Shown: positions 51,192-63,471, counted from the stretch's first letter. The stretch: DNA of 64,000 nucleotides from an uncultured Bacteroidota bacterium (GCA_903878475.1 CAIRHQ010000004.1:3477-67476); one strand, 5' to 3'. Numbers and translations are program-made. Notes: generated from the sequence alone by a model not told the origin.

Positions 51192-52046
51192 ATGAAAAGA
51201 ATCGCTTTTACCTTTATCCTGCTCATATCTGCTTCTTTATTGTTTTCCCAAAGCAAGCCTGCCTACCTGCTCTATAATGCAAAAGGGAAAAAAATATCCT
51301 ATGCAAAAATGATCCGCAAGTTGGTTCAACAAGATATCGTGATGATCGGCGAGTACCACAATAATCCGATCAGCCATTGGATGGAACTGGAGATCACTAA
51401 GGATTGCCAACAGCAGCGCAATTGTATTTTAGGTGCTGAAATGTTTGAACAAGACAATCAGCCTGCACTTGACCTCTATCTTCAGGGCAAATTATCGGCC
51501 AAGGGGCTCGATAGCATGGCCAGGCTCTGGAAAAATTACCGCACGGATTACGCACCATTGGTGAATTTTGCCAAAGAAAATAAATTGGTATTTGCCGCCA
51601 CTAATATTCCACGTCGCTATGCTGTACTGGTATCAAAAGGAGGCTTTGAAGCGCTGGATACATTGTCCGCCACAGAAAAAACATGGATCGCACCACTACC
51701 TATTGCTTATGATGCTACCCTACCCGGTTATGTGAACATGATGACCATGATGAAGGGTCACGATTCAACCAATATTGCCAAGGCCCAGGCCATTAAGGAT
51801 GCCACCATGGCCTATTTTATTTTAAAATACTTTACCCCGGGCAGTTTGTTCATTCATTACAATGGAAGTTACCATTCCGAAAATCATGAAGGAATTGTAT
51901 GGTACCTTAAACGATCAAATCCTGGTATCCGAATAGCTACCGTTACTACTGTTTCGCAAAAGAATATTAAAAAGCTGCTTGCTGAAAATAAGCGTACAGC
52001 CGATTTTATTATCTGTGTGGATGAGGACATGACCAACACTTATTAG
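51192..52046 (+). CDS. ChaN-family (heme/iron uptake-associated) exported protein
   Basis: DIVMIGEYHNN, GAEMFEQDNQ, WKNYRTDYAPLV, ATNIPRRYA, AQAIKDATMA and HYNGSYHS. Confidence 0.8.
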   Translation: MKRIAFTFILLISASLLFSQSKPAYLLYNAKGKKISYAKMIRKLVQQDIVMIGEYHNNPISHWMELEITKDCQQQRNCILGAEMFEQDNQPALDLYLQGKLSAKGLDSMARLWKNYRTDYAPLVNFAKENKLVFAATNIPRRYAVLVSKGGFEALDTLSATEKTWIAPLPIAYDATLPGYVNMMTMMKGHDSTNIAKAQAIKDATMAYFILKYFTPGSLFIHYNGSYHSENHEGIVWYLKRSNPGIRIATVTTVSQKNIKKLLAENKRTADFIICVDEDMTNTY

Positions 52047-52777: not shown

Positions 52778-55700
52778 TCACATATTTCTTCTGTACTGTC
52801 CGCCCACTGCATAAAGCGCATTGGTGATCTGACCCATGGAGCAATATTTCACCGTTTCCATCAGTTCTTCAAACAGGTTCGCATTGGCAATGGCCTTTTT
52901 TTGTAATTGGCTCAATGCATCAGCAGATTTTTGTTGATTTCTTTTTTTGAATGCTTCCAATGAACGGATCTGTTGTTCTTTTTCTTCGGTGGTACTGCGG
53001 ATCACTTCTGTAGGCAGGATGGTGGGTGAACCATTCTTATTTAAAAAAGTATTCACGCCAACGATCGGGAATTCACCCGTATGTTTCAGCATTTCATAAT
53101 GCAGACTTTCTTCCTGTATCTTATTGCGTTGATACATTCTTTCCATGGCACCCAATACAGCACCTCTTTCTGTAAGGCGGTCAAATTCTGTGAGCACCGC
53201 TTCTTCTACCAGATCGGTCAGTTCTTCAATCAAGAATGCCCCCTGATTAGGATTTTCATTTTTTGCGGTACCCAGTTCACGGTTGATGATGAGTTGGATG
53301 GCCATTGCCCTGCGTACACTTTCTTCGGTAGGTGTAGTGATCGCTTCATCATAGGCGTTGGTATGAAGCGAATTGCAATTATCATAGATCGCATACAGCG
53401 CTTGTAGTGTAGTGCGAATATCATTAAAGTCAATTTCCTGTGCATGCAAACTGCGGCCCGAGGTTTGAATATGATATTTCAGCATCTGGCTGCGCTTGTT
53501 GGCCTTATATTTATACTTCATACTCTTGGCCCAGATACGACGGGCCACACGGCCGATCACACTGTATTCGGGATCCATGCCATTGCTGAAGAAAAAAGAA
53601 AGATTGGGTGCAAAATCATCAATGCTCATGCCCCTGCTCAGGTAGTATTCCACATAGGTAAATCCATTGCTCAGTGTAAAGGCCAGTTGGGTAATGGGGT
53701 TGGCGCCTGCTTCTGCAATATGATAACCGCTAATGCTAACGCTATAAAAATTCCGTACTTTCTCTCTTATAAAATATTCCTGCACATCCCCCATCAACTT
53801 CAGTGCAAATTCTGTACTGAAAATACAAGTGTTCTGTGCCTGGTCTTCTTTTAAAATATCTGCCTGAACCGTTCCCCGCACCTGCTGAAGGGCTTTTGTG
53901 CGTATATCCTCATAGACTGCTGCTGGCAACACATCGGCCCCGCTTAAGCCCAATAAACGTAATCCCAATCCGTTATTCCCTGCAGGTAAGGCCCCTTCCA
54001 TATTTCCACTAACGGGAGTCACTTCTTTTCCATCCACACCAATATATTTTGGCAGCAATTCACTACTGAAAATGGATTCTATTTTTTTATTGATCTCCGG
54101 AGCCAGTTTATTTTCAATGATATACTTCTCACATTGCTGGTCGATGGCAGCATTCAGAAAAAATGCCAGCATGATGGGGGCAGGACCATTGATGGTCATG
54201 CTCACCGAAGTTTTGGGATCACAGAGATCGAAGCCGCTGTATAATTTTTTTGCATCATCTACTGTAGCAATGCTTACGCCGCTATTGCCTACTTTTCCAT
54301 AAATATCGGGGCGTGGTGCAGGGTCTTCTCCGTATAGCGTAACGCTGTCGAAAGCAGTACTCAATCGTTTAGCAGGCTGTCCTTCTGATACATAATGAAA
54401 ACGCCTGTTCGTTCTTTCTGGTCCGCCTTCACCTGCAAACATTCGGGTAGGGTCTTCTCCTTCACGCTTCAAAGGGAATACCCCTGCCGTGAAGGGGAAA
54501 TGACCCGGAACATTTTCCTGTCCCTGCCATTTTAAAAGATCACCCCAGTCTTTATATTTAGGTAACAACACTTTGGGTATACGTGTACCGCTCAAACTCA
54601 AACTGAACATCTCCTGACGGATCACTTTATCTCGCACATTATATTCAAAATAATCCTTGTCGTAGGCCTTTCGCTTTTCCGGCCAGTTGCTGATCAATTT
54701 TCTGGCCACAGGAGTTAATTGTTCCGTAAAATAACTGATCTGTTTCCGCAGTGCGTCGAGCAGTGGCTCTTCCGCCTTGCCCTGCAGGTTCTCCAGCGCT
54801 CCCTGCAAACGATACAGGGTAGACGCAATTGCGCTTTGATCCCTTACCAGTTGATCATAATCCCTGATGGTTGCCGTGATCTCGCTCAGATACCGCACCC
54901 TGGATGATGGGATGATGGCTTGTGAGAGTGTTGCGGTAACTTCAAAATGATACGTACCAAAACTTACTCCAGTCTTTTTTTCCATGATGTTGAGCAACTG
55001 CACAAACAATTGATTCACTCCTTCATCATTGAATTTACTGGCGATAGAACCGATCACGGGCAGCGCTTCATTCTTTTCAGAAAAAAGTCCATGGTTGCGT
55101 TTAAACTGCTTGCATACATCATTATAAGCATCGAGTGCACCAGGCTTATCGAATTTATTGATGCAAACCAGGTCGGCATAATCCAGCATATTGATCTTCT
55201 CCAGTTGCGAAGCAGCTCCGTATTCGGGTGTCATCACATACATACTTACATCACAATAATCAAGTATTGACGCATCGCTTTGTCCAACCCCGGCACTTTC
55301 CAATATGATCATATCAAAGCCTGCTTCCTTGCAGATATCGATGGCTTCCTGCACATGAATACTTAAAGCGGTATTGTCTTCCCGGGTAGCGAGACTACGC
55401 ATATAGGCCCTGGGATTGGAGATGGCATTCATTCTGATCCGGTCGCCTAGTAAAGCACCGCCGGTTTTTTTCTTACTCGGATCAACCGAGATCACGGCAA
55501 TTGTTTTTTCTGAAAAATTATTGAGGAATCTTCGTACAATCTCATCCGTTACACTGCTCTTTCCGGCACCTCCGGTACCCGTGATGCCAAGAACAGGGGT
55601 GGTTTGCCGATCGGCTTTTGTATTGTTGGTTTCCTGTTTAGGATAAGGTTCACTATTTTCTGCCAGGGTAATGCAACGGGCAATGGTCTTAATATCCTTC

Positions 55701-56188
55701 CACTCTCCCAGTGCAAAACGATCTTGTGTAGACGATTTGCCGGGTGTAGCTAATGGTGGAACGGGTGAATCACATTGCTTTATCACATCTTCGATCATAC
55801 CTTCCAGTCCCATATGCCTTCCATCGTCGGGACTATAAATGCGGGCAATGCCATATTCATGCAACAATTCAATTTCAGCAGGCAGGATGGTTCCTCCGCC
55901 ACCTCCGAAGATCTTTATATGGCTGCATCCATTCTCATCCAGCAGGTCTTTCATGTATTTAAAGAATTCTACATGACCACCCTGGTAACTGGTGATGGCA
56001 ATACCCTGAACATCTTCCTCGATAGCTGTTTCAACGATCTCTTGTACACTTCTGTTATGACCCAGGTGAATGATCTCGGCACCTTTGCTCTGCATGATCC
56101 GGCGCATCACGTTGATGGCTGCATCATGCCCGTCGAATAGGCTGGCAGCGGTTACGATCCTTACTTTATGGCTGGTTGTATCTGGCAT
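52778..56188 (-). CDS. icmF: Fused isobutyryl-CoA mutase / MeaB GTPase chaperone (IcmF)
   Basis: N-terminal B12-binding DGHDAAIN, MeaB domain GTGGAGKSS / DRIRMN, C-terminal mutase barrel with [16 protein letters not shown] and [10 protein letters not shown]. Confidence 0.9.
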
Positions 56189-56223
56189 GGAAATCAAAAT
56201 AAATTAGCAATCGGTCAGTACAG

Positions 56224-56269: not shown

Positions 56270-56308
56270 AAAAAAAATGTCCATTTGCACAAGCAAATGA
56301 ACATTTTT
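56270..56308 (-). terminator. Terminator ending the NrfC/NrfD/cytochrome c operon
   Basis: AAAAATGT-CATTTGC-loop-GCAAATG-ACATTTTT hairpin with a T-tract on the minus strand. Confidence 0.7.
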
Positions 56309-56342: not shown

Positions 56343-56744
56343 TTATTTAAGAGTTCTGAGATAATTTACCACAGCCCACATACCATTAGGATCTGTGATT
56401 TTTTTCTTGAATGAAGGCATATCCTTACGGCCTTCTGCTGTTTTATAATACAAAGCACCGTCAGTTTGTGCAGTCAAATCTTTTGTAAAATCACCGCATT
56501 CTGTATCTAACTGAGAAGCTTTTGGACCATCTCCTTTCCCTTTTGTTCCATGACATGATTTGCAATGTGTGTTGTATAAGTCTTTGCCAGTGGCAATTGA
56601 AGCTGCATCAGCTTTAACCGGATTGGCTTTATTCTTAGCGGCATCAGGTACAGGCCAAGGGTCGTTGGTATTATGTTTTGGTACGAACGCTACCAGAGAA
56701 ATTGCAAAAACTACTGCGAAAAACACTGAAATTTTCTTTTTCAT
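56343..56744 (-). CDS. Periplasmic monoheme class I cytochrome c (ActE-like fold pattern)
   Basis: Signal peptide, NPV...GKDLYNTHCKSCHG.KGKGDGP, DGALYY and distal Met in DMPSF. Confidence 0.88.
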   Translation of the reverse strand: MKKKISVFFAVVFAISLVAFVPKHNTNDPWPVPDAAKNKANPVKADAASIATGKDLYNTHCKSCHGTKGKGDGPKASQLDTECGDFTKDLTAQTDGALYYKTAEGRKDMPSFKKKITDPNGMWAVVNYLRTLK

Positions 56745-56780
56745 TTTGTATCGATTTTAATTTTTATTGAATAAACAAAG

Positions 56781-57746
56781 TTACACATTAATTGGATTAT
56801 TTGGCTCGTGGGGCTCCTCTTTTCTAAGTCTTAACAATTCGAAAACAATGACAAAATAGTGGCCCCAAACGGTAGCAACCAGTATCACAAAAGTGATCAC
56901 CATCCATAGTGGAGGATGTGCACTCCATAAAGCCCTGGGCATTACAGAATTAACGTCAGAAACCGCTACTCCCCAGTTTTGACTGGTACTGGATTCAAGA
57001 TTTCCATAGGTTTCATTTTCATCTATCTTAGCGATCAGCGTAATATTTCCATTGGCATCTCCGGGTAATCCTTTCGGTATTTCCAGGGTTCCTTCACCGG
57101 TAGTATCGGTCGTTACTTCTCCCAGTTTCATAGGAAAGAACTGACGCTTTACAAATATCCCTACCACTATATTTGATACGCCGGCTTCTTTGCCTGTTCC
57201 TACATCAATCAGTTTCACTTTCACTGAGGTTACAGAATCCTCCTTAATGGGTGTAATATCGATCCTGGCTCGCTTTGCCGTTACTTCTCCATCGGTTGCT
57301 TCCATGGATTTATTGCCGGCAAACATCGCTTTAAAATGAACCTTTCCATCCTTATCCACCAACAACTGATTGGCCTTGCAGTTGAATACGCCTTTTCCAT
57401 TCAGGTCGGTAATGATGAAGCCCATTTCCTTATTAACGGTATCGGCTACCTGATAAAAAGTCACTTTTAATAGGGGCAGTTTAATGGTACTGCCTTTGAA
57501 TTTTGTTTTCAAGGCAACCTTCAAATCTACTGAGCTATCAGCTTTCTGTATACTCAATAGTTCTAAGGAGGGAGAAAGCAAACTAGGTTCTGTTGCAGCC
57601 ACTGTAGTATCTGCAGTTGTTTTAGCACTGTCGGCTTGTGCAAAAACATGACTGGGTAAAATATTTATTAATACACTAAGGGCAGCGCATACCAGTAGTT
57701 GCCGACATCCTTTAATAAGCGCCTGATTTTTTGAATATTTTTTCAT
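56781..57746 (-). CDS. Hypothetical exported beta-rich protein with C-terminal membrane anchor
   Basis: Signal peptide ending VFAQ, beta-rich body, C-terminal TM PPLWMVITFVILVATVWGHYFVIV; lies inside the operon. Confidence 0.75.
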   Translation of the reverse strand: MKKYSKNQALIKGCRQLLVCAALSVLINILPSHVFAQADSAKTTADTTVAATEPSLLSPSLELLSIQKADSSVDLKVALKTKFKGSTIKLPLLKVTFYQVADTVNKEMGFIITDLNGKGVFNCKANQLLVDKDGKVHFKAMFAGNKSMEATDGEVTAKRARIDITPIKEDSVTSVKVKLIDVGTGKEAGVSNIVVGIFVKRQFFPMKLGEVTTDTTGEGTLEIPKGLPGDANGNITLIAKIDENETYGNLESSTSQNWGVAVSDVNSVMPRALWSAHPPLWMVITFVILVATVWGHYFVIVFELLRLRKEEPHEPNNPINV

Positions 57747-57756
57747 AAACTATTTT

Positions 57757-59106
57757 TTAAGCAGAAGCGATTTCATTTTCATTCAATACGGGTTGTTCAG
57801 CCGTTGTTCCCTTATTAGCAAACTCAGAGATGGGTATCACCGTTACAAATTTTGACATTAAGGTAAAGAACAGGAAGAATGTGGCTATCCCACCAAAGGT
57901 GAGGGCCCATTCTACCCAGGTAGCTGTATATTTCACATACTCAATTCTTGTATCCTGCATAGGAAGTAAAGGAGATTCCAATGTAGGTACAATGATCAGG
58001 TATCTTTTTACCCATAATGCGATCACCATGAACAAAGAAACCAGTGCAATCAGGTTGGGTGTTCTGGTTTTGGGCAAGGCTACTACCACAATCGGTAATA
58101 GAATACCTGCAACATTCGCAAACAAGAACCACCATCCGTATTTGGCCGGGTTGAACAATTTTTCAAGTACTTCACTTTCCCATTTTTCTGAAGCAAACCA
58201 ACCGGTGAGGTATTCAGAAAAAGTAAAGTATCCATAACCTGCACCCAATACCATCATGATATAACCCAGGTAAATAAAATGTTTATCAGTAAGATAGCTT
58301 TGCAATCCGTACATCTTCCTGTACACCCACATTGCCATGATCAACACACCGGTACCGGAATAAATAGCGGCCAGTACAAAATAAGGTCCAAAGATGGTAC
58401 TATGCCATCCTGGGCGAAGGGTCATACCAAAGATCCAAGACAATACAGAGTGTACGATGATGGCCAGCGGTACAATCATGATGGCCATAAGATTGGTACT
58501 GATGCGGATATGTCTATTCTGACTATGAGTTCCACGATAACCAATGGCAAGGATCTTATATAATTTTTGTTTCCATTTTGGAATATTCAATTTAGCATCA
58601 CGGTAAATGGCAAAGTCTTTGATCAATGCCAGATACAAGAAGATCACACTACCTGTGAAATAAGTACTGATGGCCAGTACGTCCCAGGTAATAGGTGATT
58701 GCAGCCTGGGATAGATGAACAGGTGATGAAGCCTGTCGAGCCTACCCACACATAATAAGATATACACCGGACCAATGATGGTAGCGATCACGGTGATCAT
58801 TTCAGCGATCCTGATAATGGGTTTTCTCCATTCCACTTTCAGGATATGCAGGATACCGGAAATAACGGCGCCGGCATAACTGATCCCGATAAAGAAAATG
58901 AAGTTGGCGATATACAAACCCCAAACCACATTGTCGCGCATCCCTGTAATACCATGTCCCTTCGTGATTTGAAGGTATAAGGCATATCCACCCAAAAGAA
59001 TCCAGGCCATAAAAAAGATAGTCCAAGCCCAGGTTTTTTTTCCGAAATTTTCGATAACCGGACGTTGTTTATCAAAAGCTTCCTGTTGATATTTATTGAG
59101 TTCCAT
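57757..59106 (-). CDS. nrfD: NrfD/PsrC/ActC-family quinol-interacting membrane subunit
   Basis: VVWGLYIANFIFFIGISYAG, WRKPIIRIAE, SPITWDV, HSVLSW, RPGWHSTIFGPYF and RYLIIVP; about 10 TM segments. Confidence 0.88.
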   Translation of the reverse strand: MELNKYQQEAFDKQRPVIENFGKKTWAWTIFFMAWILLGGYALYLQITKGHGITGMRDNVVWGLYIANFIFFIGISYAGAVISGILHILKVEWRKPIIRIAEMITVIATIIGPVYILLCVGRLDRLHHLFIYPRLQSPITWDVLAISTYFTGSVIFLYLALIKDFAIYRDAKLNIPKWKQKLYKILAIGYRGTHSQNRHIRISTNLMAIMIVPLAIIVHSVLSWIFGMTLRPGWHSTIFGPYFVLAAIYSGTGVLIMAMWVYRKMYGLQSYLTDKHFIYLGYIMMVLGAGYGYFTFSEYLTGWFASEKWESEVLEKLFNPAKYGWWFLFANVAGILLPIVVVALPKTRTPNLIALVSLFMVIALWVKRYLIIVPTLESPLLPMQDTRIEYVKYTATWVEWALTFGGIATFFLFFTLMSKFVTVIPISEFANKGTTAEQPVLNENEIASA

Positions 59107-59148
59107 AATGATTAATATTCATGGTTAATTCAAATACTGTTTTGGTTC

Positions 59149-60108
59149 TTATTTTTCTGTGCCTTCCATGGCATCTTTATAACGCGCTTTGATCTTGTCG
59201 GGAAGGTTCTCATATCCCCTTTCCACAGGGAACTGCCTGTCTTTTGGTGGCAGATAATATACCCGTGGTTTGGTTCCTAATTCTTCCATAAACCTGTATC
59301 CTGCGCGGTCTTTGATCAACTGTTTGAAGCCTAGGGTTTCATCACCATTGGAAACGGTGTCTTCATTTTCATCTCCATAATAGAATACACCATTTGGACA
59401 AGCTTCCACGCATGGTGGCAGCAGGCCTACACGAGCTCTATCCGGACAGAAATCACATTTTTCAACTGTACCCACTTTAGCAGGGATATTGGTTTCAGGA
59501 TTAGATACTGCATGCTGAATATCAAATGGCATCTCGGGTTCATTCCAATTGAACACCCTGGTTGAATAAGGACAGGCGGCCATACAGAATTTACATCCGA
59601 TGCATCTTTCATTATCTATTAATACCAGACCATCCTGTCTTTTATAAGTAGCGTCTACCGGACAAACCTTAACGCATGGCGGGTTGTCGCAATGGAAACA
59701 CTGTTTGGGAAACCAGTAAGGTGGTGCATTTTCACTGTCGCGCATCAGTTTTACCGTTAACCACTCACGGTCTTCGGGGCGATAATGCCATTTCTGACAA
59801 GCGGAAATACATTTACGGGCATCTTTGCAACGGGATAGATCTACTACCATTACAAATTTCTTACCCGCGATCCCCTGCCTGGCTTCCAGTTTCGACACAA
59901 TGGCCAAATGTTCCTGGTAATTCAGGTAAGAAGAATCGATCTCCACGATCTCGCCATCGGGAGAAAGCAGTTTTACTTTTTCATTAGCAGCTACTTTTGA
60001 ACTGCATGAGCTTGCCAAAGTACCGCATGCAGCAGTAGCAACTGTAGCAAGGGCAACCGTTTTTATAAAATCTCGGCGGCCGTTGTCATTGGTTTCTAGT
60101 TCTTTCAT
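59149..60108 (-). CDS. NrfC/DmsB-type 4Fe-4S dicluster protein with Tat-lipoprotein signal
   Basis: GRRDFIK, hydrophobic stretch and ASSC lipobox; CKDARKCISAC, CFHCDNPPCVKVCP, CIGCKFCMAACP and CDFC...PPCVEACP; GTKPRVYY. Confidence 0.88.
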   Translation of the reverse strand: MKELETNDNGRRDFIKTVALATVATAACGTLASSCSSKVAANEKVKLLSPDGEIVEIDSSYLNYQEHLAIVSKLEARQGIAGKKFVMVVDLSRCKDARKCISACQKWHYRPEDREWLTVKLMRDSENAPPYWFPKQCFHCDNPPCVKVCPVDATYKRQDGLVLIDNERCIGCKFCMAACPYSTRVFNWNEPEMPFDIQHAVSNPETNIPAKVGTVEKCDFCPDRARVGLLPPCVEACPNGVFYYGDENEDTVSNGDETLGFKQLIKDRAGYRFMEELGTKPRVYYLPPKDRQFPVERGYENLPDKIKARYKDAMEGTEK

Positions 60109-60127
60109 GAAATAAAATTTGAAAGGA

Positions 60128-60358
60128 TCAAATATTGTTTTCTTTAGAAGGATTTTCCATCCAGTCATAAATTTGCTGGTTGCTGGCTTTTTTTTGAGAG
60201 GTCAGTTTATCCAGAATGGCTTTGTCGACCTCCACCAGTTTGCCATCAGGAGTGAGCATTTTTACTTTCCCGGAACCGGTTGTAGCATTACTCTTTGGAG
60301 TAAAAAGTGATAAAAACCAGCGGCGGGATTTTGTGTCGGAATTTGAATTGTTTCCCAT
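60128..60358 (-). CDS. Small hypothetical protein (76 aa) with twin-arginine motif, paralogous to the Fe-S subunit N-terminus
   Basis: SRRWFL plus KVKMLTPDGKLVEVD, versus GRRDFI plus KVKLLSPDGEIVEID in the next gene. Confidence 0.75.
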   Translation of the reverse strand: MGNNSNSDTKSRRWFLSLFTPKSNATTGSGKVKMLTPDGKLVEVDKAILDKLTSQKKASNQQIYDWMENPSKENNI

Positions 60359-60440
60359 TGTATTTTGTAATTGATTATAAATAAATAATGACAGTAACAA
60401 TCACAGATGCAATATTATCCATGCAATTTTTACCATCTCA

Positions 60441-60524
60441 TGACAAACATCAAGGTATAAAATGAGTATTATCATCCTTTCCGTACCGGGTGATAGTGGT
60501 TTGAAAACTCCCTGACTAAAGTCA
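60441..60524. promoter_or_regulatory. Three TGA-N6-TCA palindromes (Crp/Fnr-type operator candidates) in the divergent intergenic region
   Basis: TGACAAACATCA 60441-60452, TGAGTATTATCA 60463-60474, TGACTAAAGTCA 60513-60524. Confidence 0.55.
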
Positions 60525-60569
60525 TGTTCTGCTAATACGATTGTCATAATACTGTCAAAGAGCCCAATC

Positions 60570-60577
60570 TAACTTTG
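60570..60577 (+). promoter_or_regulatory. -7 promoter element TAACTTTG for the lipoprotein/beta-barrel operon
   Basis: Exact TAnnTTTG 87 nt upstream of the ATG at 60665. Confidence 0.55.
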
Positions 60578-60664
60578 GGGCCTCAATTACAAAATGAATT
60601 GAGTTCTTTTAACAAAAGAGACCAAAACAGTATCCATTTTTTCAATAAGTAAATTAAATTTTTT

Positions 60665-61855
60665 ATGAAAAAAATTTCATTGATCAAAGCAACGACACTC
60701 TTCCTTGCAGTTATGTTCGTTTCTGCTTCTATTATCCAGTGTAAAAAAACCGGCGACATTGTAAAAGACCTGGACAGGTCATTCAAAGGCTCGGCCGACA
60801 CTACTATTTATGCTGCTTTTTATGAGAGCAACACCATCACTCCAGCTGATGCAACAGCTGATGTGAATGATGTAATTAAATTCCGTGGAGTACAAACCAT
60901 CATCCACGAATATTGCGCTACATCTAATTGTCATGGCGGCCCTATCGGTCCTAAATTCGATACCTATGCCGACATCATGAAATATGTAGTGGCTGGCAAT
61001 CCTGAAGGAAGCAAAATGTGGGATTATTTGACCACCAACAACTTCGACAAGGCAATGCCTCCGGTTAATTCTAATCACGAAATGACCGTGACCGACAAAA
61101 ATCTTCTTTACAACTGGATCAAGAATGGTGCGAAAGAAAAACCAAACCTGGCCGATTTCAGACCAGCAGCTGTAACGCTGATCGGAAATGGTTGTGCTTC
61201 TGCTAACTGCCATAATGAAGCTACTTCTACAGGCGGTTGGGCAAGGGCAGGATTTATCCCTGGCTTAGTAACTGGTGACACTTCACAATATACATATATT
61301 AGCCCCTCTAATGGAGCGGCTACTATTTATTGTCAGCTTTCTAATGCAACTGTTCGCAACCAAGTTTGGAATGCATATAAAGACAGTGTAAGGAAATTCT
61401 ATTCTGATACCGTAGCTTTTGCAAGTTTCCGTCCATGGAAAACATTTGCTACACCACGTTCTGCCTTAAGCACCCGCGGACCACTGAATACTTATGATGA
61501 TATCATGCTTGATATTATGTATCCAAAAAGTATCAGAAGCAATTCATCTGTTCAATATACAGATCCTGTTACTTTAAAAACTTTTTACTCAAAAGGCAAT
61601 TACTTAAATGTTGCCAGTACAATCGTTAGTCGGATTGACTCCACTTTATTAGTGGCCAATCCTTTCACAGGAATCTATCAAACTTCTAGCCAAGGTGATA
61701 TGGCCTATGGTGATGGTGGTTTGAAAGCCAATGAGATCGCGCTGGTTAAAGCCTGGTATTTTGCCGATCCAAATATTCCTGATGTATGGAAATATGGCGT
61801 AAACAATGCCGGTATTTTCAAATACAGGAAAACAGGTAACATCATCAAAAAATAA
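60665..61855 (+). CDS. Lipoprotein with two planctomycete-type cytochrome c-like domains carrying CX4CH motifs
   Basis: Lipobox IIQC; CATSNCH...VVAGNPEGSKM...AMPP...LYNWIKNGA; second domain CASANCH...DMAYG...EIALVKAW. Confidence 0.7.
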   Translation: MKKISLIKATTLFLAVMFVSASIIQCKKTGDIVKDLDRSFKGSADTTIYAAFYESNTITPADATADVNDVIKFRGVQTIIHEYCATSNCHGGPIGPKFDTYADIMKYVVAGNPEGSKMWDYLTTNNFDKAMPPVNSNHEMTVTDKNLLYNWIKNGAKEKPNLADFRPAAVTLIGNGCASANCHNEATSTGGWARAGFIPGLVTGDTSQYTYISPSNGAATIYCQLSNATVRNQVWNAYKDSVRKFYSDTVAFASFRPWKTFATPRSALSTRGPLNTYDDIMLDIMYPKSIRSNSSVQYTDPVTLKTFYSKGNYLNVASTIVSRIDSTLLVANPFTGIYQTSSQGDMAYGDGGLKANEIALVKAWYFADPNIPDVWKYGVNNAGIFKYRKTGNIIKK

Positions 61856-61885
61856 TTGATACGATCATTCTAAAATTTTAGATAT

Positions 61886-62500
61886 ATGAAAAAAGTAGTA
61901 GTAACAATGGCGGTAATAACTTCAATGCTTATTTACCTCTTGTCATCTTGTTATAAAAACAAAGAAGATATCCTGGCCCTTCCAAAAATTTCATTCCGGT
62001 CAGATGTAGTGCCCATCATCGTTGCCGGTGGATGCGGTTGTCATAACAACGGACAAGCATCAAGAGCTGTCCAATTCTCTCATGCCGATACTATTTTTTA
62101 TGATGGTATCCTAGCCCGTCTTTCTTTATTTGATTCTTGGGTAAATGGCGGAACCCATCCAGGTGGTGGCATGATCGATTTTAAATCCAACGAAAAAACG
62201 ATCATTAAAAAATGGATCGCCGAAGGTGGTAAAGATGATGGCGGTGGTTGTACTGTTGCCGGTGTAATTACGCACACAGCCAAGATCCAGCCAATTTATC
62301 TTACAACCTGTAAGGGTTCTACCTGCCATGGTGGAATTGCGCTGACCCTTGATTACGCCAAAATGAAATCAGATGTTTCTATCATCACTTCTATGATGAA
62401 TAGTGGTGGAGCCAGTGGACATCCGGGTGGAGCATTGAGCCTGAGCACCTGTACCGTAAATACATTTAAAGAATGGATTGCACAGGGTCAACCCCAATAA
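61886..62500 (+). CDS. Lipoprotein with duplicated cytochrome c-like domains (CXCH and CX4CH)
   Basis: Lipobox LSSC; SFRSDVVPII..CGCH..HPGGG..KWIAEG and THTAKIQPIY..CKGSTCH..HPGGA..EWIAQG. Confidence 0.68.
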   Translation: MKKVVVTMAVITSMLIYLLSSCYKNKEDILALPKISFRSDVVPIIVAGGCGCHNNGQASRAVQFSHADTIFYDGILARLSLFDSWVNGGTHPGGGMIDFKSNEKTIIKKWIAEGGKDDGGGCTVAGVITHTAKIQPIYLTTCKGSTCHGGIALTLDYAKMKSDVSIITSMMNSGGASGHPGGALSLSTCTVNTFKEWIAQGQPQ

Positions 62501-62559
62501 TCATTAACCCGATATTTTACAAATTCTAAATGAATGTTATGAAAATAAAATCAGTTGAT

Positions 62560-63471
62560 ATGAAAAAGATACTTTCGCTCCTTGTATTTTGTCTGGGTTT
62601 CACCGCCTTCACCATTGCACAGGATGCCACCAAAATAACTAAAGAAAAAGCCGTTCCAAAATATGCCCGCGCTACTTTCAATTCTTCCCGCATCATCAAC
62701 ATGCAGAGTACAGAAATGGTAAGTAAAGGTGCATTGGAATTCATGATCTCTCACCATTTCAGCAATATCTGGAATAAGGATGCAGGATCTCAGAACCTGG
62801 CTCAGTTATTCGGACTGAACTCAGGTGTTGCACATACTTATTTATCATTCTCTTATTCTCCACTCAACTACATGAATGTGGGTTTAGCTGCAGCCGGAAA
62901 CTCTAAATATGAAGGCTGGCTAAAATTCAAACTGCTGCGTCAGCAAACAGGTTCTAAGAACATACCTGTTTCCGTTGCCTTATATTCAATGATGAATATC
63001 AATACAGCAAAGGATCCTGACCAATCATTTGCCGGAAACAAGATCGCTTTTGTGAATCAATTGTTGATCTCCCGCAAAATGACTGATAAACTGTCTCTGG
63101 AACTGATCCCTACCTGGGTACATTTCAACATCGTTCCTTACGGTATCAACAACAGTAACGAGGTATTCTCTTTAGGTTTAGCAGGAAGGTATAAAATAAA
63201 ACCAAAAATGAACCTTACGCTGGAGTATACACGCCAACTGAATATGTATGAGAACCTGATCACTAAGAACGGCAGTATCCTCAATTATCAGCCTAACCTG
63301 CTCTCTGCCGGTATTGAAATCAATACAGGCGGTCACTTGTTCCAATTCTACATCGGCAGCACAACAGATGCTTCTCTGCTTGACCAATTGGCTCGTAACA
63401 ACAGCAGTATTAAAGACGGTAATTTCGCTTTCGGCTTCACCATCAACAGAAGCCTGAGTTTGAAAAAATAA
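62560..63471 (+). CDS. DUF5777-like outer-membrane beta-barrel protein
   Basis: Signal peptide; ATFNSSRIINMQSTE, LEFMISHHF, KFKLLRQQTG, QLLISRK and INTGGHLFQFY; start MKKIL at 62560 preferred. Confidence 0.8.
   Translation: MKKILSLLVFCLGFTAFTIAQDATKITKEKAVPKYARATFNSSRIINMQSTEMVSKGALEFMISHHFSNIWNKDAGSQNLAQLFGLNSGVAHTYLSFSYSPLNYMNVGLAAAGNSKYEGWLKFKLLRQQTGSKNIPVSVALYSMMNINTAKDPDQSFAGNKIAFVNQLLISRKMTDKLSLELIPTWVHFNIVPYGINNSNEVFSLGLAGRYKIKPKMNLTLEYTRQLNMYENLITKNGSILNYQPNLLSAGIEINTGGHLFQFYIGSTTDASLLDQLARNNSSIKDGNFAFGFTINRSLSLKK

Follow-up and report, generated by a model that had tools for sequence, protein, structure and literature searches.

What does an Fe-S/NrfD-type subunit pair do when the operon that encodes it holds no catalytic subunit? 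This question is raised by a five-gene operon (the quinol module) in a 64,000-nucleotide stretch of DNA from an uncultured Bacteroidota bacterium, hereafter the window (Table 1). The original prediction described it as a minimal ACIII-like module, either a stripped-down quinol:cytochrome c oxidoreductase or the membrane arm of a redox pathway ending at the divergently transcribed lipoprotein operon. The operon is real, intact and conserved in Bacteroidota, and its complex is related to the respiratory alternative complex III (ACIII) but much simpler. On balance, its product is probably a so far unstudied inner-membrane complex of the NrfCD type that connects the quinone pool with the outer membrane or the cell surface.

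Table 1 Features of the quinol module and its divergent neighbours, with positions counted from the first nucleotide of the window
Feature	Position	Strand	Length	Basis or remark
small twin-arginine protein	60128..60358	-	76 aa	ORF call from ATG
Fe-S subunit	59149..60108	-	319 aa	Fer4_11 match
NrfD-family membrane subunit	57757..59106	-	449 aa	PF03916 match
anchored subunit	56781..57746	-	321 aa	AF2 model, alignment
monohaem class-I cytochrome c	56343..56744	-	133 aa	Cytochrom_C match
intrinsic-terminator-like hairpin and T-run, operon end	56270..56308	-		from sequence
divergent intergenic region	60359..60664		306 bp	between quinol-module operon and lipoprotein/barrel operon
CX4CH lipoprotein	60665..61855	+	396 aa	weak PSCyt1 match
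second lipoprotein, CGCH and CKGSTCH	61886..62500	+	204 aa	ORF call
DUF5777 outer-membrane beta-barrel protein	62530..63471	+	313 aa	PF19089 at 228.7 bits

All five predicted ORFs were found on the minus strand (56343-60358), where they form a tight operon with intergenic gaps of, in order, 19, 42, 10 and 36 nt, and Pfam backs the assignment of the Fe-S, NrfD and cytochrome c subunits. The 319-aa form of the Fe-S subunit begins MKELETNDNGRRDFIK; the listed 339-aa ORF, starting at 60168, would overlap the small gene. A longer form of the small protein, from an alternative TTG start at 60400, is unlikely. The terminator proposed at the operon end was likewise found, as hairpin arms ATGTTCATTTGC and GCAAATGGACAT followed by a T-run (~56304-56270) after the cytochrome c gene, and a stem scan gave the matching stem on the plus strand at 56282-56299. 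Also as predicted, Pfam searches of the ORFs of 56343-60400 revealed no gene for a molybdopterin subunit, a multihaem cytochrome, ActA, ActD or ActF in the operon. The divergent intergenic region presumably holds the promoters of both operons; promoter-like matches in it did not exceed shuffle expectation, and we therefore claim no promoter site there.

The membrane subunit matches PF03916 with 114.4 bits (cut-off 25.8) over profile positions 3-308 of 313. It is closest to ActC, with full-length alignments of 167-190 bits and, for the ActC chains 8k9e_C and 6f0k_C, E values of ~1e-55 over its residues 24-429. ActC has 10 TM helices, and the NrfD subunit aligns across the entire chain. However, in an IQ-TREE phylogeny it falls into a clade of its own (support 99/99) that includes neither ActC nor DsrP. 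The ActC sequences form a monophyletic group (100/100) that leaves out clade A, which comprises the window-type sequences, and clade B, and clade A joins ActC plus ActF at only 82/86. The predicted quinone site consists of Cys119, Ser137, Trp141 and Asp142, with Arg368 as the gating residue. Both the quinone-pocket Ser and the gating Arg are present, since Ser137 aligns with ActC Ser164 and Arg368 with ActC Arg395, and the equivalents of ActC Ser164, Trp168, Asp169 and Arg395 are kept throughout the 29 sequences of clades A and B. The roles of the quinone-site residues and the central gating Arg of ActC have been described (PMC8076601). Cys119 takes the place of an ActC His: the position of R. 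marinus ActC His139 is Cys in 15/15 clade A sequences, Asp in 13/14 of clade B and His in 8/8 ActC sequences, and a Cys replacing His or Asp at the quinone site is unprecedented, a point against the function proposed below. Together with the full-length alignment to ActC, the conserved Ser, Trp, Asp and Arg suggest a subunit capable of quinone chemistry.

The Fe-S subunit has the hallmarks of an NrfC/PsrB-type four-cluster ferredoxin with predicted cofactors, namely a Tat signal (GRRDFIK, with the RRDFIK leader), a probable lipobox Cys, four ferredoxin-type Cys groups and a Fer4_11 match of 86 bits in Pfam. It scores 177.8 bits against NCBIfam DsrO, below the cut-off of 200, and in the PDB 104 bits against PsrB (2vpw_B) and 74 bits against ActB, which places it nearer to DsrO/PsrB than to ActB. 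As a further refinement of the predicted likeness to ACIII, that likeness holds for the membrane subunit by similarity but not by its place in the tree. Group I reads C-x2-A-x2-C-x3-C, the second Cys being absent. The C-x2-x-x2-C pattern of this group is the classical [3Fe-4S] signature, and with only three Cys in this group, a [3Fe-4S] composition is predicted for one of the clusters. The same group I pattern, C-x2-A/L/E-x2-C, was found in 28/29 clade A and B sequences, with groups II-IV complete, and the only departure comes from L022, in which a third paralogue is of the canonical four-Cys type. By this pattern, the [3Fe-4S] cluster is expected distally in the chain and not next to the membrane. 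Group III is complete in the Fe-S subunit (CIGCKFCMAACP), whereas ActB of the same genome has CIGTRYCANNCP; in the motif comparison, it is group III that is one Cys short in ActB, while group I of DsrO is complete with four.

The cytochrome c contains one CxxCH motif (CKSCH) and a distal Met in DMPSF, and matches Cytochrom_C with 46.7 bits and Cytochrome_CBB3 with 44 bits. It has an N-terminal signal or anchor, lacks a lipobox and the N-terminal extension of ActE, and is ~27-30% identical to the haem domain of the ActE of the same genome (27.5% by tblastn to the ActE on contig C92). By its motifs it is of the His/Met class-I type, and it resembles ActE. Haems of this class are usually high-potential, which would make quinol to cytochrome c the downhill direction.

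The small twin-arginine protein combines SRRWFL with a hairpin motif, KVKMLTPDGKLVEVD, which it shares with the Fe-S subunit, where the motif lies close to the mature N-terminus, and profile searches gave no Pfam or NCBIfam match. Its gene is retained in 71/73 related loci with flank, and clade-B loci have a counterpart of 64-90 aa that shows SRRKF/WL and MLTQDGRLVEVD as well as a complete hydrophobic stretch. The anchored subunit starts with a cleavable signal peptide (cut between VFA and Q) and a Ser/Thr-rich linker, followed by two tandem Ig-like beta-sandwich domains (AF2 model, mean pLDDT 84.9), a PRALWS-HPPLWM-VWGHY segment conserved in the alignment, and a C-terminal TM helix. Foldseek returned generic tandem Ig-like folds only for this model, and the protein has no sequence match in PDB, Pfam or NCBIfam. 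It was found in 53/53 related loci with flank; like the small protein, this Ig-like anchor is a constant component of the system.

The core genes are all intact in 53/53 related loci with enough flank, and the ORFs are 45-89% identical across dozens of genomes. Taken with the tight gene arrangement and the retention of the small gene, this shows that the operon is real and under selection. The same genome contains a canonical actB-C-D-E-F plus cox cluster on contig C92, the only place in the genome where ActA, the ActB1 domain, ActD and ActF were found. The quinol module therefore exists in addition to ACIII and is not what remains of one. A paralogous Fe-S/NrfD/anchor set on contigs C101/C153 represents a second copy of it.

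The first lipoprotein of the divergent operon carries two CX4CH motifs (CATSNCH and CASANCH) and an MPP motif, and C84/C89/H90, M131-P133 and C177/C182/H183 are invariant in 30 orthologues. Its PSCyt1 score of 22 bits equals the cut-off, and its AF2 model (pLDDT 70) gave no significant fold match and no cytochrome fold, which speaks against the proposed electron route; from its motifs it is a probable c-type haem protein. The second lipoprotein shares its operon with the barrel and co-occurs with both the first lipoprotein and the barrel in related loci. The DUF5777 domain of the barrel protein covers 247 positions (~250 aa). This is small beside known porin-cytochrome conduits, which counts against an electron route through the outer membrane.

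Of 55 close loci with an upstream flank of 4.5 kb or more, 52 have a DUF5777 gene nearby and 3 have none; such a gene also lies in 12/12 distant Bacteroidota loci from other genera, families and classes, 10/12 of which also have a small CX4CH lipoprotein match; because related loci are kin, these counts overstate independence. CX4CH lipoprotein genes usually accompany the DUF5777 gene, and in relatives the barrel is joined by two lipoproteins, one small and with CX4CH, the other EB_dh-like or YceI-like. The adjacency of barrel and CX4CH genes persists across two different gene arrangements and several families and classes. Among 401 sampled genomes, DUF5777 modules occur in 167 and the quinol module in 13, so most DUF5777 modules must work without it. 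The clade-B Fe-S gene of the same genome, on contig C101, has no barrel gene ahead.

The neighbours of the quinol module are almost always an outer-membrane barrel and what are probably haem lipoproteins, so that electrons of the quinone pool are likely to be passed outwards by it, in the direction of the outer membrane. Both readings of the original prediction are supported: the membrane subunit is most similar to ActC, and phylum-wide synteny with the DUF5777 barrel and CX4CH lipoproteins favours the membrane arm. In the proposed sequence of events, the NrfD subunit, a sister lineage of ActC and DsrP, would bind menaquinol at a periplasm-facing site and pass electrons to the Tat-exported Fe-S subunit, along whose four clusters they would reach the distal predicted [3Fe-4S] and then the monohaem cytochrome c encoded at the operon end. 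The Ig-like anchored protein and the small twin-arginine protein would be structural or assembly subunits devoid of cofactors, and the reduced cytochrome c would serve the neighbouring outer-membrane module, which in the window consists of the DUF5777 barrel and two CX4CH lipoproteins. This model builds on observed gene content, family relationships, conserved residues and synteny, from which its cofactors, the direction of electron flow, contacts among the parts and the final acceptor or purpose are inferred. More tentatively, and with considerable reservation, we propose that both operons form a new Bacteroidota-specific trans-envelope redox chain, in which a quinol oxidase of the NrfCD type, lacking a catalytic subunit but having Cys in its quinone site and [3Fe-4S] as its distal exit cluster, would feed the monohaem c and, through it, CX4CH haem lipoproteins on a small DUF5777 barrel.

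The resemblance of the cytochrome c to ActE and to oxidase c-subunits, the closeness of the NrfD subunit to ActC, the many DUF5777 modules found without a quinol complex and the 3 loci lacking a nearby barrel would also suit a stand-alone second menaquinol:cytochrome c oxidoreductase, feeding caa3 or cbb3 in parallel with ACIII and functionally unrelated to its outer-membrane neighbours. We regard this as unlikely, given the adjacency of barrel and CX4CH genes through different arrangements and taxa, and no oxidase genes adjoin the quinol module, in contrast to the act cluster on C92, which lies next to cox. Electrons might instead flow in the opposite direction, from an extracellular or periplasmic donor via outer-membrane haem proteins and the cytochrome c to menaquinone. 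The related Qrc runs that way and also has one [3Fe-4S] cluster (PMC8076601), and in other phyla a part in iron metabolism has been suggested for ACIII-type modules (PMC9386147). However, the scores against NCBIfam QrcC (121 versus a cut-off of 400) and QrcD (57 versus 570) are far too low, the hosts are heterotrophs with NADH dehydrogenase and ACIII, and a His/Met class-I monohaem c would normally be too high in potential to reduce menaquinone without energy input, which makes reverse flow improbable.

NrfC/NrfD-type pairs normally anchor a catalytic enzyme, be it a molybdoenzyme or another, in the membrane and serve as its electron-transfer arm, with the distal Fe-S cluster as a rule facing the catalytic subunit. 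Such an enzyme encoded elsewhere is nevertheless very unlikely: in this genome, 100% complete by marker genes, PF00384 matches only NuoG, a cytoplasmic FdhA-like protein without Tat signal, and ActB, so that the search found no periplasmic molybdoenzyme, and across 92 loci no catalytic gene is conserved beside the module. Finally, the gene order of Fe-S, NrfD, anchored protein and monohaem c recalls actB-C-D-E, but the reading as a decayed canonical ACIII operon is refuted by the intact and conserved ORFs, the well-supported separate NrfD clade, the family-specific conserved residues and Cys pattern, and the coexisting intact ACIII.

If the proposed chain from the quinone pool to the outer membrane is correct, it would supply the outer membrane or the cell surface with reducing power, perhaps for extracellular electron transfer or to quench lipid radicals in the outer membrane, and it would be built without any Mtr/Pcc parts. 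Porin-cytochrome conduits such as MtrCAB and Pcc consist of a large outer-membrane porin enclosing multihaem cytochromes. The two-operon system shares with them only the concept of an inner-membrane quinol oxidase, a periplasmic cytochrome, and a barrel with probable haem lipoproteins encoded together; it differs in its small barrel domain and its putative CX4CH haem motifs, and no deca- or multihaem cytochrome is encoded in the window, so membership is not supported. In Proteobacteria, the YceI-family lipocalin BcnA and the inner-membrane cytochrome b561 LcoA protect the envelope from lipid peroxyl radicals (PMC9113575). A YceI-like lipoprotein also belongs to the barrel module of relatives, but the inner-membrane partner is a different one and the window has no YceI gene, and any likeness would be one of analogy.

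With NrfCD, PsrBC and QrcCD, the quinol module has in common the logic of a Tat-exported four-cluster ferredoxin on a cofactor-less, quinone-binding NrfD-type subunit at the periplasmic side, but those pairs serve a catalytic or multihaem partner (NrfAB, PsrA, QrcAB), none of which is encoded in the operon (PMC8076601). Its composition is absent from that review of the NrfD family, and in agreement with the original prediction we found no description of such a complex in the literature searched. Membership of Qrc was rejected on the scores given above, and neither a hexahaem nor a QrcB-like gene is present in the operon. In NCBIfam, the top matches are to DsrO (178 bits) and DsrP (84.9 bits; paralogue 140) of DsrMKJOP, of which DsrOP(J) likewise combines periplasmic cytochrome c, Fe-S and NrfD subunits without a catalytic subunit. 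The DsrO group III motif CIGCRFCMAACPY is nearly identical to CIGCKFCMAACPY of the Fe-S subunit, and DsrP and clade B both have Asp at the quinone-site position. However, both scores lie below the equivalog cut-offs (200 and 350), whereas true Chlorobia DsrP reach 440-493 bits with the DsrP model and only 65-77 bits against the NrfD subunit in phmmer. Moreover, the tree clade is separate, group I of DsrO contains its full four Cys, the Arg of the NrfD subunit corresponds to a Lys in DsrP, and no DsrM, DsrK or DsrJ (dihaem b, HdrD-like, trihaem c) is encoded within the operon. ACIII (ActABCDEF; PDB 6f0k, 6btm, 6lod, 8k9e), which occurs in the same phylum, shares an ActC-like NrfD subunit with the quinone-site Ser/Trp/Asp and central Arg, an Fe-S subunit homologous to the B2 part of ActB, a monohaem c resembling ActE in its haem domain and a similar gene order. 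In contrast to ACIII, the quinol module does without the pentahaem ActA, the molybdopterin-like B1 domain, ActD and the second NrfD-like subunit ActF, its NrfD subunit stands outside the ActC clade with Cys for His139, it is not located beside cox genes, its [3Fe-4S] signature is in group I (distal) instead of group III (membrane-proximal), and it adds the Ig-like anchor and the small twin-arginine protein.

The original prediction of a five-gene operon ending at a terminator proved correct, judging from the ORF layout of the window, the Pfam and NCBIfam support for the family assignments of the encoded proteins, and the hairpin with a T-run located 3' of the last stop codon; only the start codons were adjusted. 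The five closely packed ORFs run on the minus strand from 60358 to 56343, with intergenic gaps of 19, 42, 10 and 36 nt in gene order. For the genes of the small twin-arginine (RR) protein and the Fe-S subunit, the starts listed below are the most likely ones, and the N-terminus of the Fe-S subunit is then formed by a twin-arginine leader, with possible lipobox cysteines behind it. Promoter-like hits around the operon occurred at chance level, and no operator was assigned.

Features of the quinol module, the divergent operon and neighbouring genes in the window
Feature	Position	Strand	Description
Small twin-arginine protein	start 60358	-	76 aa, MGNNSNSDTKSRRWFLSLF...KVKMLTPDGKLVEVD...
Fe-S protein	start 60108	-	319 aa, N-terminus MKELETNDNGRRDFIKTVALATVATAACGTLASSCSS
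NrfD-family protein	within 60358-56343	-	449 aa
Anchored protein	within 60358-56343	-	321 aa, without family match
Cytochrome c	last ORF, to 56343	-	133 aa, single CxxCH
396-aa lipoprotein	divergent operon 60665-63471	+	two CX4CH + MPP, invariant in orthologues; borderline PSCyt1
204-aa lipoprotein	divergent operon 60665-63471	+	CGCH and CKGSTCH
DUF5777 outer-membrane barrel	divergent operon 60665-63471	+	Pfam
ChaN-type haem-binding lipoprotein	51192-52046	+	PF04187 (196 bits); at 4 kb distance to the operon
Fused isobutyryl-CoA mutase-like protein	52778-56197	-	1139 aa; domains for B12 binding, MeaB GTPase and mutase; follows the terminator directly, outside the operon; adjoins in several related loci

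The source genome (2.85 Mb in 245 contigs, 100% complete by marker genes, with Ferruginibacter and Chitinophagaceae metagenome-assembled genomes as closest public records) contains three NrfD-family genes. A full act operon elsewhere in the genome, for which a check had been proposed, was found on contig C92, where genes for ActB (truncated at the end of the contig), ActC, ActD, ActE and ActF encode a canonical alternative complex III (ACIII) and are directly followed by cytochrome oxidase genes. A second, paralogous Fe-S/NrfD/anchored-protein set lies in pieces on contigs C101 and C153. In a homologue search with the window protein, all hits were close relatives under generic names, and the public annotation of the NrfD protein is the generic 'NrfD/PsrC family molybdoenzyme membrane anchor'. 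By means of a one-genome-per-species scan, 177 NrfD relatives were found, and the best 80 loci of these 177 were fetched. The anchored protein and cytochrome c were present in all related loci whose contig extends far enough (53/53), and for the small RR gene the count was 71 of the 73 loci with enough contig; the small RR protein is a constant component, with a possible role in assembly or as a small subunit. Some loci carry a second Fe-S/NrfD/anchor triple in tandem, preceding the cytochrome c gene. In one locus (L102, G219:C1:1158000-1177900), two Fe-S/NrfD/anchor/cytochrome c sets are arranged in tandem, with upstream a 360-aa multihaem c lipoprotein that contains collagen-like GxDGxDG repeats and weakly matches MtrC/MtrF domains in Pfam. 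A profile search detected the anchored-protein family in 13 of the 401 sampled Bacteroidota genomes, belonging to at least six families, some of them outside the class of the window, thus the quinol module is an accessory trait with a patchy distribution.

Over almost all of its length, the NrfD subunit matched the four ActC chains with solved structures (E about 1e-55, 167-190 bits); its match to the ActF structure was weak, and beyond ActC/ActF no solved structure matched at E <= 0.01. Phmmer scores of the window NrfD were 460-907 bits against window-type relatives (clade A), 286-336 bits against relatives of the C153 paralogue (clade B), 172-194 bits against Bacteroidota ActC, and 65-77 bits against Chlorobia DsrP. 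In a maximum-likelihood tree (LG+C20, 44 sequences, NrfD and HybB of E. coli serving as the outgroup; QrcD, NhcC and DsrP2 left out of the sampling), clade A (support 99/99), clade B (85/97), ActC (100/100) and DsrP (100/100) formed separate groups, and the grouping of clade A with ActC+ActF was weak (82/86), which argues that the window NrfD is homologous to ActC yet lies outside the ActC clade. The placement suggested along with the original prediction therefore gives ActC as most similar in sequence, but in the tree a clade of its own for the window protein, which represents a distinct lineage within the ActC/ActF/DsrP group delineated in a review of the NrfD family (PMC8076601). Of the residues highlighted in this review, the Ser in the pocket, the Trp-Asp pair and the Arg in mid-membrane position show no variation across clades A and B (Ser137, Trp141, Asp142 and Arg368 in the window NrfD). 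The proton-accepting position, for which the review gives Glu, Asp, His or Ser alone (PMC8076601), is His in ActC, Asp in DsrP, Asp in 13 of 14 clade B sequences, and Cys in 15 of 15 clade A sequences (Cys119 in the window protein). Two proteins from genomes of the window's class (G295:C1:1095053-1096204 and G355:C13:17622-18770) scored 419-426 bits, over the NCBIfam DsrP equivalog cut-off, which is unexpected outside Chlorobia within the phylum.

The nearest NCBIfam model for the Fe-S subunit was DsrO (177.8 bits, cut-off 200), and among solved structures PsrB and ArrB were nearest, with ActB ranked lower. Cys groups II-IV are complete, and group I reads C-K-D-A-R-K-C-I-S-A-C. Among the 29 Fe-S sequences compared from clades A and B, 28 have another residue in place of its second Cys, whereas Chlorobia DsrO and the ActB of the same genome have four Cys in group I; in group III, this ActB lacks the second Cys, unlike the window protein. 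The sole exception among the 29 is a third Fe-S paralogue, L022_p9324 (L022:9324 onward), with a four-Cys group I (CDGCRLCTEAC). By the established assignment in NarH/DmsB-type proteins, the clusters nearest to the membrane derive from groups II and III, and the most distant ones from groups I and IV. Taken together with the loss of the second Cys in group I, this assignment predicts a [3Fe-4S] cluster at the distal exit of the chain, unlike the quinone-end position in ACIII.

In the AF2 model of the anchored protein (pLDDT 84.9), a signal peptide and a disordered linker rich in Ser/Thr precede two Ig-like beta-sandwich domains in tandem, and a TM helix forms the C-terminus. The Gln directly after the signal peptide is invariant in the alignment, and a conserved PRALWS..PPLWM..VWGHY segment is located just before the helix and extends into it. 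Foldseek with this model gave generic tandem Ig-like matches only, and no functional lead. The protein is unrelated to ActD of ACIII, and since it contains no cofactor motif, it can be read as a structural or docking subunit. The small RR protein and the mature N-terminus of the Fe-S subunit have a hairpin motif in common, and the clade B equivalent of the small protein, 64-90 aa in length, contains an RR motif and MLTQDGRLVEVD together with a complete hydrophobic stretch. The cytochrome c is of the His/Met class-I type and shares about 27-30% identity with the ActE haem domain from the same genome.

The divergent operon belongs to an outer-membrane module of a DUF5777 barrel and lipoproteins (barrel module). 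For the AF2 model of the 396-aa lipoprotein (pLDDT 70), PDB matches were none better than E = 0.95, and a cytochrome fold was not confirmed. About half of the close loci have the divergent arrangement of the window, and the remaining ones carry a different gene set, upstream and on the same strand as the quinol module, coding for an EB_dh-like protein (about 400-445 aa), a lipoprotein (about 130 aa) that contains a single CX4CH/MP/WIKQGA domain, and a DUF5777 barrel that shares only 27-30% identity with that of the window. The C-terminal half of the 396-aa lipoprotein was considered as a stand-in for the EB_dh-like protein, and rejected (hhalign probability of 1% between the alignments of its orthologues, A2, and of the EB_dh-like proteins, A3). 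A DOMON-like analogy via domain X132 of Cbp2D was dropped, since X132 has been published as a novel CxxCH domain. The EB_dh-like proteins (PF09459; L034:4024-5334 and alignment A3) contain an invariant C-x3-C-H (TCYASCH), which hints at covalent attachment of haem, although haem b is the usual ligand of this fold.

Among the 55 close loci whose upstream sequence reaches 4.5 kb or more, 52 contained a DUF5777 gene. We also sampled twelve distant loci from other genera, families and classes, all informative, of which ten are clade B and two clade A (L108 and L109); L107 (G131) is ambiguous, its NrfD grouping with clade A and its Fe-S score falling in the clade B range. In 12/12 of these loci a DUF5777 barrel adjoins the Fe-S/NrfD/anchor/cytochrome c genes, and 10/12 have a match to the small CX4CH lipoprotein. 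According to Pfam scans, a YceI-like lipoprotein takes the place of the EB_dh-like protein in L099 and L106, and one distant locus also has a multihaem lipoprotein. An MMPL/RND-type transporter lies between the two modules at L099:13413-15671 and L108:2936-6491, in the latter together with a peptidase-U32 family protein. Given these counts in differently arranged close and distant loci, the link between the barrel and quinol modules survives rearrangement and wide divergence, related genomes being non-independent samples. DUF5777 itself is present in 167 of the 401 Bacteroidota genomes sampled (about 40%), with a YceI-like gene within about 2 kb, mostly directly adjacent, in 10 of 10 loci examined, thus the barrel module is general and the quinol module an optional addition. 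The source genome has three DUF5777 modules, including one on contig C22 (9267-12547; cytochrome c, EB_dh-like protein, CX4CH lipoprotein and barrel) and one on contig C130 (3160-5037; CX4CH lipoprotein, YceI-like protein and barrel) that is convergent with sdhAB.

From these data we infer the function of the quinol module. Menaquinol would be oxidized by the NrfD subunit on its periplasmic face, and electrons would pass through the four clusters, by way of the predicted distal [3Fe-4S] cluster, to the monohaem cytochrome c, which would then reduce the putative haem lipoproteins of the barrel module. The conserved Arg and half-channel residues suggest a possible coupling of the reaction to charge movement, like that in ACIII and Qrc. 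A less likely reading is a stand-alone mini complex III, against which stands the robust genetic tie to the unstudied outer-membrane module. A reversed, Qrc-like quinone reductase is likewise less probable: provided that the potential of the His/Met haem is as high as is typical, electrons would flow more easily, in thermodynamic terms, from quinol to cytochrome. Unlikely readings are an anchor for an enzyme encoded elsewhere and, even more so, a remnant; the only molybdopterin-family matches in the whole genome are NuoG, ActB and a cytoplasmic FdhA-like protein without Tat leader, and a canonical ACIII is encoded on C92, so that neither a cognate molybdoenzyme nor a degenerate ACIII remnant, the outcomes named as contradicting the original prediction, was found in the genome. 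For electron transfer from menaquinol to the barrel module, one possible final purpose is extracellular electron transfer, and another would be reducing power against outer-membrane lipid radicals, by analogy with the BcnA-LcoA pair of a YceI-family lipocalin and a cytochrome b561 (PMC9113575).

In the open-access literature searched, we found no mention of DUF5777 and no description of the quinol-module complex, whether among ACIII-like modules, EB_dh/DOMON proteins with NrfD or extracellular electron transfer in Bacteroidota, descriptions elsewhere being possible. Its composition is absent from the NrfD-family review (PMC8076601), and the ACIII-like modules in this literature are only clusters keeping ActA-F, such as the 'ACIII-like' clusters of MBNT15. 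As an inner-membrane electron source for the DUF5777 barrel module, the operon is the first plausible candidate, and therefore provides an experimental handle on the role of the latter, with extracellular electron transfer and envelope antioxidant defence as candidate roles in abundant freshwater, soil and wastewater bacteria. The Cys at the quinone site and the exit-end [3Fe-4S] signature are directly testable family-specific features, which bear on how modules of this type tune quinone chemistry and redox potential. The quinol module is a real, conserved and novel form of NrfCD/ACIII-type complex with distinctive residues. To our knowledge, all NrfD-family complexes studied to date have a catalytic or multihaem partner, and a conserved NrfD-type complex without one would be an addition to the set of respiratory modules.
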